DNA from: Escherichia coli
GTDB taxonomy: Bacteria; Pseudomonadota; Gammaproteobacteria; Enterobacterales; Enterobacteriaceae
DNA length: 1,207 nt
Direction: 5' to 3' (one strand)
NCBI RefSeq assembly: GCF_003334385.1
Contig: NZ_QOWN01000121.1
Shown one piece after another: positions 1 through 1,207 of this stretch (positions are counted from its first letter, which is position 1; every line of letters begins with the position of its first letter). Below the pieces are notes generated by a model. It was not told where the DNA came from. It made no database searches and saw nothing but the letters and a program-made list of their open reading frames with translations. The position numbers and the translations under genes are program-made.

Positions 1-313
1 CGCTCAAGCAACAGCGCATTCTGGCGCATGATCCGGTAAACACGTTTGGCATTGATCGCAGGCATACCATCAAGTTCTGCCTGTCTGCGAAGCAGCGCCC
101 ATACCCGACGATAACCATACGTGGGCAGCTCTCCGATAACATGGTGTATACGGAGAAGCACATCCGTATCATCAGTGTGACGACTGCGGCGGCCATCCAT
201 CCAGTCATCGGTTCGTCTGAGAATGACGTGCAACTGCGCACGCGACACCCGGAGACAACGGCTGACTAAGCTTACTCCCCATCCCCGGGCAATAAGGGCG
301 CGTGCGCTATCCA
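1..313 (-). CDS. insD: IS2 OrfB (InsD), DDE transposase catalytic part, N-terminal ~104 codons only; 3' end truncated by the window edge
   Basis: Manual translation of the reverse complement of 1-313 from the GTG at 313-311 gives (V/M)[103 protein letters not shown], recognised as the InsD N-terminus. It is in the -1 frame relative to orfA and overlaps its 3' end. It is absent from the ORF track because it has no ATG and no stop inside the window. Confidence 0.85.
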
Positions 314-637
314 CTTTTTTGCCCGTCCATATTCAACGGCTTCTTTGAGGAGTTCATTTTCCATCGTTTTCTTGCCGAGCAGGCGCTGGAGTTCTTTAAT
401 CTGCTTCATGGCGGCAGCAAGTTCAGAGGCAGGAACAACCTGTTCTCCGGCGGCGACAGCAGTAAGACTTCCTTCCTGGTATTGCTTACACCAGAGAAAT
501 AACTGGCTGGCTGCTACACCATGTTGCCGGGCAACGAGGGAGACCGTCATCCCCGGTTCAAAGCTCTGCTGAACAATTGCGATCTTTTCCTGTGTGGTAC
601 GCCGTCTGCGTTTCTCCGGCCCTAAGACATCAATCAT
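272..637 (-). CDS. insC: IS2 OrfA (InsC), the small helix-turn-helix DNA-binding / regulatory transposase subunit, 121 aa
   Basis: The supplied ORF 272..682(-) contains [49 protein letters not shown]...[15 protein letters not shown], recognised as IS2 InsC. I place the start at the ATG at 637-635 (residue 16 of the track ORF), which has the GGAG ribosome-binding site upstream. The track's longer N-terminus begins at a GTG inside the IRL and is unlikely to be real. Stop is TAA at 274-272. Confidence 0.9.
314..320 (-). other. Programmed -1 ribosomal frameshift slippery heptamer A AAA AAG, joining orfA to orfB to make the OrfAB transposase
   Basis: The minus strand reads GGGCAAAAAAGTGGATAGCGCAC. 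In the orfA frame this is GCA AAA AAG TGG. After a -1 slip the reading continues AAA AAA GTG GAT AGC..., giving [15 protein letters not shown]..., which matches the InsD N-terminus. A6G frameshift sites are the established mechanism in IS3-family elements. Confidence 0.7.
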
Positions 638-642
638 CTGTT

Positions 643-646
643 CTCC
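643..646 (-). promoter_or_regulatory. Shine-Dalgarno (GGAG) for IS2 orfA
   Basis: The minus strand reads CATTGGAGAACAGATG: GGAG followed by a 5-nt spacer and the orfA ATG at 637-635. Confidence 0.5.
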
Positions 647-676
647 AATGACTAGTCTAAAAACTAGTATTAAGAC

Positions 677-696
677 TATCACTTATTTAAGTGATA
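677..696. repeat. 9-2-9 palindrome TATCACTTA-tt-TAAGTGATA straddling the inner edge of the IS2 IRL
   Basis: Seen directly: 677-685 TATCACTTA, 686-687 TT, 688-696 TAAGTGATA, a perfect reverse complement. It lies between the terminus and the orfA start, where the IS2 promoter/operator is reported. Its function is inferred, not shown. Confidence 0.6.
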
Positions 697-728
697 CTGG
701 TTGTCTGGAGATTCAGGGGGCCAGTCTA
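688..728 (-). repeat. IS2 left terminal inverted repeat (IRL, ~41 bp); element terminus at position 728
   Basis: The minus-strand sequence starting at 728 is TAGACTGGCCCCCTGAATCTCCAGACAACCA..., the characteristic IS2 terminus. The exact inner boundary is taken from the published ~41-bp IRL length, not measured here because the right end is absent. Confidence 0.75.
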
Positions 729-913
729 GTCAGTGATCTACAGCCTGTTGAATAAAACCCCGGATGCTTCCCCCGATTCTGCAAGTAATACTTCGGTTAT
801 TTGCACTATTTTATCCCTGTTGAATTTGGTTAAGCCGGTGCAGACGCGCCGGGAAACGCACACCTGAACCGGCACAATAAAATACAATACAACCCCCTGT
901 TACTGGAGAAATG

Positions 914-945
914 TAAGCGTCAACGGAGCACCGTATTGACGCTTA
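914..945. repeat. Perfect palindrome / hairpin (10-bp arms TAAGCGTCAA / TTGACGCTTA, 12-nt loop) at the IS66-like terminus, overlapping the transposase stop codon
   Basis: Seen directly: 914-923 TAAGCGTCAA and 936-945 TTGACGCTTA are exact reverse complements. The loop CGGAGCACCGTA can form an extra 3-bp stem (CGG/CCG). On the plus strand it is followed by TTTATT (946-951), so it resembles an intrinsic terminator in that orientation. Confidence 0.6.
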
Positions 946-1128
946 TTTATTGGTGAGTACTACGTTCCATGGCAGGAGTTCGTCAACTCGGTTGGAAGGC
1001 CATTCCGGCAGTACGCTCAGGATATGGCGCAGATACGCTTCCGGATCGATACCGTTCAGACGGCAGGTGCCGATCAGCCCGTACAACAGTGCTCCACGCT
1101 CGCCGCCGTGATCGCTGCCAAAGAACAT
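943..1128 (-). pseudogene. IS66-family transposase (TnpC-like), C-terminal 61-codon fragment
   Basis: ORF 943..1128(-) translates to MFFGSDHGGERGALLYGLIGTCRLNGIDPEAYLRHILSVLPEWPSNRVDELLPWNVVLTNK. This matches the conserved IS66 transposase C-terminus pattern (WLFAGSD.GGERAA..YSLIGTCKLNG.DPEAYL...ELLPWN). Full-length proteins are ~500 aa, so about 90% is missing. The frame immediately upstream is closed by stop codons. Confidence 0.6.
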
Positions 1129-1180
1129 AAAGATGGTATGACCTTTATATACTCACTATAGCATTGGTGGGATATTCCAG

Positions 1181-1186
1181 AGGAGG
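1181..1186 (+). promoter_or_regulatory. Strong Shine-Dalgarno AGGAGG, 5 nt upstream of the ATG at 1192
   Basis: Positions 1181-1194 read AGGAGGTCATTATG: a consensus ribosome-binding site with optimal spacing to an ATG. Confidence 0.4.
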
Positions 1187-1191
1187 TCATT

Positions 1192-1207
1192 ATGCATTCG
1201 GAAAATA
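1192..1207 (+). CDS. 5' end of an unidentified ORF (M-H-S-E-N...), running off the window 3' edge
   Basis: ATG at 1192-1194 preceded by AGGAGG, then CAT TCG GAA AAT. Only 5 codons are visible, so no product can be assigned. The call rests entirely on the translation-initiation context. Confidence 0.25.

Follow-up and report, generated by a model that had tools for sequence, protein, structure and literature searches.

The window, i.e., the whole 1,207-nt stretch of E. coli DNA that was analyzed, contains a 184-bp spacer at positions 729-912 that is enclosed by insertion sequences (ISs). The following features were mapped in it:

1-728, minus strand: left 728 bp of IS2 (IS3 family), 99.5-99.6% identical to the annotated IS2 copies in genomes L007 and L012
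272-682, minus strand: IS2 orfA, from the ORF list
314-321: IS2 A6G frameshift motif, CTTTTTTG on the plus strand; orfB starts beyond it
728, minus strand: IS2 IRL terminus, ending in ...GGGGGCCAGTCTA
729-806, minus strand: 5' stub (~26 codons) of a PF27752/UCP030791-family pseudogene, from tblastn and DNA alignments
744-753, minus strand: repeat copy 1, ATTCAACAGG, comprising the codons Ile-Gln-Gln and the first base of Ala
807-909, minus strand: leader/upstream region of the pseudogene, with ~75-78% identity to the region between alpA and PF27752 in intact paralogues
816-825 (feature 814-825), minus strand: repeat copy 2, which shares bases with a Shine-Dalgarno-like AGGGA (818-814; 7 nt upstream of the GTG)
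834-873, minus strand: imperfect leader hairpin GCCGGT...ACCGGC, found in most paralogues
910-912: AAT, common to the L001-type junction and absent from the ancestral L003/L004-type leader
913-1132, minus strand: right end of ISEc23 (IS66 family), with terminal GTAAGCG
914-923 and 936-945: perfect 10-bp inverted repeat TAAGCGTCAA / TTGACGCTTA, just inside the ISEc23 terminus
943-1128, minus strand: last 61 codons of the ISEc23 TnpC
1133-1207, plus strand: left end of an ISEc45-like IS110-family element, inserted in the ISEc23 transposase gene, with the transposase ATG at 1192

As an earlier note on this DNA had stated, the spacer is bounded by IS ends, with the IRL of IS2 ending at 728 and the IRR of ISEc23 starting at 913, and it holds no meaningful ORF, the longest frames that touch it being 44 aa (plus strand) and 49 aa (minus strand). 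The direct repeat reported there, CCTGTTGAAT, is indeed exact at 744-753 and 816-825 (72 bp apart), and CCTGTT does occur a third time at 896-901; the hexamer is also found at 439, i.e., outside the spacer and inside IS2. All three described C-runs are present, the last one at 893-897 as given, while the other two were misplaced by one position (758-761 and 770-774 rather than 757-760 and 771-775).

A decayed island gene and its leader

Distant blastn searches against plasmids uncovered paralogues that are 75-78% identical to the spacer; the same type of search with the spacer against the phage collection yielded no match. In these paralogues, spacer positions 3 to ~74 fall on the 5' end of a gene on the minus strand (annotated as "inovirus-type Gp2 protein" or "hypothetical protein"), and positions 75 to ~160 fall between this gene and the alpA-family gene upstream of it. 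When the proteins of intact paralogues were compared with the window by tblastn, they matched VQITEVLLAESGE (806-768) and then, after a frameshift, GSIRGFIQQAVDH* (771-730), with a combined E value of 2e-5 in the window alone. Beyond the window, in strains SK1144 (L001) and ABU 83972 (L005), the similarity extends up to residue 125-128 of 187 (E = 1.7e-23 and 9e-31, respectively), and the pseudogene bodies of both strains contain several stops and frameshifts.

In the protein collection, 329 relatives of the intact paralogue were found, all of which carry PF27752 (UCP030791); nearly all are from E. coli, and E. albertii and Salmonella are also represented. Some sources label PF27752 proteins "inovirus Gp2 family protein" (e.g., WP_057697845.1). 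NCBIfam and PHROGs scans of intact paralogues assigned no family, and a literature search returned nothing on PF27752 or UCP030791. A Pfam scan with a set that apparently lacks PF27752 gave a weak match of the intact paralogue to PF11726 (YagK/YfjJ; 14.4 bits), which at E = 0.037 is below significance. YagK/YfjJ proteins, known from the cryptic K-12 prophages CP4-6 and CP4-57, do belong to the same kind of island module, and the intact modules contain a genuine YagK/YfjJ gene a few genes further upstream; however, neither the stub nor the PF27752 paralogues are significantly similar to a typical YfjJ-like protein (L003 6315-6884).

The order of genes in the conserved modules with intact PF27752 copies (L016, L018, L019 (1011-3513); L023 (1033-3549); L009, L010, L015) is a YagK/YfjJ-like gene, a gene for a hypothetical protein of ~190 aa, alpA, and PF27752. 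Variable cargo comes directly after the PF27752 gene, for instance KwaA/KwaB of the Kiwa defence system or DndB; the module looks like a cargo hotspot in AlpA-type islands. In E. coli, the PF27752 family is part of such AlpA-type genomic-island modules.

The window shares with the PF27752 proteins of E. coli islands and plasmids the first 26 codons and the leader (~75-78% DNA identity), with conservation of the motifs VQITE..LL.E.G and RF(V/I)QQAVDHW. In contrast to its relatives, which have an ORF of about 170-187 aa directly after alpA, the window holds a stub whose body is cut by IS2, with no alpA upstream, and the leader homology is all that is kept of the usual gene neighborhood. More specifically, the stub starts with GTG at 806-804 on the minus strand, carries a 2-bp insertion at about 766-769, and has a TGA at 732-730 in place of TGG, a conserved Trp codon. 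Given the length of ~26 codons, the 2-bp insertion, and the TGA, together with the stops and frameshifts in SK1144 and ABU 83972, we consider the stub to be a fragment of a pseudogene and not a gene; it is by these stops and frameshifts that the gene appears to be dead. The stub carries no annotation in the RefSeq records examined, and no transposase lies under the match. In one genome (L002 5828-6139), RefSeq lists a plus-strand "hypothetical protein", WP_249940207.1, that spans an IS100 junction and the spacer antisense to the stub and is probably a spurious gene call.

Upstream of the start codon, the leader homology in strain C10 (L003) and in L004 extends past 909, whereas the window and SK1144 diverge from 910 on. 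The AAT at 910-912 is probably the residue of an older deletion junction, as judged from just these 3 nt. Loss of the ribosome-binding site through a 10-bp deletion was also considered as the origin of the short leader of the window; this was rejected, since the intact copies in L016, L020, L021, and L023 have the same form and carry AGGGA or GGGGA 7 nt before the start codon.

Two elements of the leader are shared among PF27752 genes. The core of the hairpin recurs as CCGGTG...CACCGG, and a box, GCTTAACAAAATTCAAC(A/G)GGG, is well conserved just before the ribosome-binding site (814-830, minus strand). The conserved box and hairpin may have had, or may still have, a putative cis-regulatory activity in intact copies. 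A more specific proposal, namely, that the leader with its hairpin and its AAATTCAAC(A/G)GGG box couples the gene and the defence cargo to AlpA, strikes us as rather unlikely. Almost all pairs of the hairpin are invariant and covariation is sparse (of the 14 pairs in the main hairpin, one shows a compensatory change), which speaks neither for nor against the structure. Should the proposal be true, the leader could be a site of read-through or translational control, a fossil of it would be preserved in the window, and the 10-mer repeat would still be incidental. The conserved leader of the intact genes, which lie between alpA and the cargo, is a thread for specialists that concerns the intact PF27752 paralogues and not the window.

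Conservation of the repeat and alternative explanations

The earlier note had put the chance of an exact 10-mer repeat within 184 nt at 1-2%, and our simulation agrees with this estimate: 64 of 5000 dinucleotide shuffles of the spacer (1.3%) hold an exact direct 10-mer repeat. When the whole 1207-nt window was shuffled, such a repeat was present in 416 of 1000 sequences (42%), so that one 10-mer repeat is unremarkable for a reader who scans the full window.

We compared the two copies in an alignment of 13 distinct homologous sequences, 10 of which are paralogue rows. Copy 1 falls in the conserved peptide motif RF(V/I)QQAVDHW, and copy 2 belongs to the leader box AAATTCAAC(A/G)GGG. Exact identity of the two copies is restricted to the lineage of the window/L001, L003, and L005. 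The coding copy reads GTTCAGCAGG or ATTCAGCAGG in 9 of the 10 paralogue rows; in the tenth (L020), it is the same as in the window, but the leader copy differs. Variants of the leader box in the alignment include ATTCAACGGG, ATTCAACAGA, ATGCAAC--GG, and ATTCACAAGG. In most intact paralogues, the two copy positions differ at 1-3 of 10 bases, and at the position of the third CCTGTT the paralogues have CACTGG, AACTTG, or AACTGG.

These data bear on an idea raised in the earlier note, i.e., that the spacer is a protein-binding site array. Candidate regulators that would bind the 10-mers and the third CCTGTT to control the gene include AlpA and the PF27752 protein itself. The leader copy does lie in a fairly conserved box adjoining the Shine-Dalgarno sequence, and the two positions still agree at 7-9 of 10 bases in intact paralogues; yet by calculation ~6 pairs with an 8/10 resemblance are expected by chance within 184 nt, and the conserved RF(V/I)QQA peptide explains the coding copy. 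Moreover, the exact identity is limited to the pseudogene lineage, the paralogues do not keep the third CCTGTT, and copy 1 is missing from about half of the genomes that carry the segment. Given that the repeat pair is not conserved in most intact relatives and that its copies reside in unrelated contexts (codons versus leader), an array of this kind is highly improbable. Instead, the Ile-Gln-Gln codons and the leader box, which overlaps the Shine-Dalgarno sequence, happen by chance to be identical over these 10 bp, and neither the repeat nor the C-runs nor the third CCTGTT has a function in its own right.

In strain C10, a 297-bp deletion lies inside the pseudogene, with its junction at a CTTGTTG/CCTGTTG microhomology that involves repeat copy 1 (L003 4990-5010 compared with L001 5708-5720 and 6012-6024). 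Here the repeat motif acted as a substrate for deletion and not as a functional site.

A small regulatory RNA encoded by the spacer had been suggested as well, and the stable hairpin at 834-873 and two weak terminator-like motifs on the minus strand would suit it. An Rfam scan of the window at permissive E values, however, returned only sub-threshold noise of about 17 bits or less (the best hit over the spacer scored 17.4 bits against a gathering score of 45, and gathering scores are at least 45), and a promoter scan of 700-960 found no sigma-70-like site on either strand. Folding z-scores are ordinary (-0.14 in the gene sense and -1.54 for the plus strand), the main hairpin has the one compensatory change mentioned above, and the coding stub and leader account for the whole segment. 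We consider a small RNA very unlikely, even though the relic may be transcribed, e.g., by read-out from the flanking ISs.

Distribution among E. coli genomes

The spacer has a match in 2213 of 5426 complete E. coli genomes, with at least 80% coverage in 859, and in many genomes, numbering in the hundreds, the chromosome matches the 184 bp at 100% identity. The arrangement IS2-spacer-ISEc23 is found in 22 complete genomes; strains GE3 and MEI4BO-21 are examples of carriers. In SK1144, the match spans exactly window positions 728 to 913 with neither IS at the site; ABU 83972 likewise has no IS there, and the two strains are collinear for ~1 kb leftwards, reaching a DeoR regulator gene and an ilvN-like pseudogene. 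On the other side, the spacer of SK1144 is joined straight to alcohol-dehydrogenase-like gene fragments adjoining acuR (L001 6186-6480), which we take to be a YhdH/AcuI-like C-terminus. This join marks another old deletion junction, 3 bp from the position of ISEc23 in the window. In L003 and L004, the gene upstream at the same locus encodes a zinc-ribbon protein, whereas ISEc23 occupies this place in the window.

Among an evenly spaced sample of 60 records, 32 retain spacer positions 76-181 only, i.e., repeat copy 2 without copy 1. In these 32, the GTG start codon of the pseudogene is the exact endpoint of an IS66-family element (...GTACGCTTAC/CAC..., L004 4990-5001 and L006 4990-5001; spacer position 75/76, i.e., window 803/804). 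The junction is identical in all sampled cases and suggests a single old insertion that spread, as opposed to a hotspot.

The earlier note had also proposed a remnant of a third element. This holds insofar as the segment is the relic of a genomic-island gene with its leader, but no third IS or transposon is involved. A third-IS remnant, or sub-terminal sequence of IS2 or ISEc23, might be envisaged at a locus so dense in ISs (IS2, ISEc23, and ISEc45, with IS100 and other IS66-family copies elsewhere). Nevertheless, the same 184 bp are present in SK1144 with neither IS at the site, which rules out the sub-terminal variant; in addition, positions 728 and 913 are exact IS termini, each intact relative is an ordinary protein-coding gene that follows alpA, and no transposase is annotated under the match. 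Such an origin is accordingly extremely unlikely.

Taken together, we conclude with a probability of roughly 0.9 that the spacer is an inert relic, comprising the ~26-codon start and ~100-bp leader of a dead PF27752/UCP030791 gene caught between ISs, and that its repeat is coincidental. It aligns end to end with degraded coding and intergenic DNA of related genomes and the 10-mer pair is not conserved, essentially the outcome that the earlier note had named as speaking against its own reading. A false lead is thereby removed, since the repeat, the C-runs, and the "unassigned" status all stem from a decayed gene start and its leader. The segment is not new: it is the fossil of a known, uncharacterized gene family, and its DNA is present in thousands of sequenced E. 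coli genomes.

Flanking ISs and the order of events

The probable order of events begins with the decay of the gene. The TGG-to-TGA change is common to the window and ABU 83972, the latter without IS2, and the 2-bp insertion is common to the window, SK1144, and C10; further stops and frameshifts lie downstream in strains without IS2. The gene was thus dead already before the ISs arrived. IS2 inserted after codon 26 and severed the gene body, whereas the insertion of ISEc23, at ~106 bp upstream of the start, severed the far upstream region. In a third step, IS-mediated recombination or deletion probably stripped the original outer flanks, given that neither IS2 nor ISEc23 has matching target-site duplications.

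With regard to IS2, the reference copies in L007 and L012 are annotated as "IS3-like element IS2 family transposase", and both the near-identity to them and the terminal inverted repeat at the junction place the left flank in this element. The 5-bp target-site duplication is missing, the copy in L012 having ATCGT on one side and GTCAG on the other. In L007, a second IS2 copy lies 5.4 kb away and carries a proper ATCGT duplication. From these junction sequences, we infer that the IS2 of L012 and of the window is a recombinant of two copies, formed with deletion of the intervening DNA. In GE3 (L007), the spacer-side IS2 is reduced to 249 bp (L007 7868-8128 compared with window 467-728), and the truncation joins the interior of IS2 to the body of the pseudogene at a CTTCCTTCCT microhomology.

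The right flank is assigned to ISEc23 by its terminal GTAAGCG and by window positions 600-1132, which include the ISEc23 end and are 100% identical in 21 genomes annotated with ISEc23. The inverted repeat at 914-923 and 936-945 is a sub-terminal hairpin of this end. An 8-bp target-site duplication is absent, as the flanks in L007 read GGAGAAAT on the spacer side versus GAAACTGC on the far side; the sequence past the far ISEc23 end of L007 was sought in 12 kb of L001, and no match was found there. The relic conforms to the standard pattern of IS-flanked relic DNA in E. coli islands (IS2, IS66-family) without any difference: exact IS termini abut it, target-site duplications are missing, and the hybrid IS2 indicates recombination between IS copies with deletion. 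The locus clearly illustrates how one IS insertion after another, together with recombination among IS copies, reduces an island to fragments.

The ISEc45-like element to the right interrupts ISEc23. In the uninterrupted ISEc23 of L012, the homology to the window stops at 1132, and window 912-1207 matches L008 6386-6681, which carries an ISEc45 annotation, at 95.9%. This ~96% match in strain 118UI, where an IS66 remnant is joined to ISEc45, lies in a different island, beside iha and sat.
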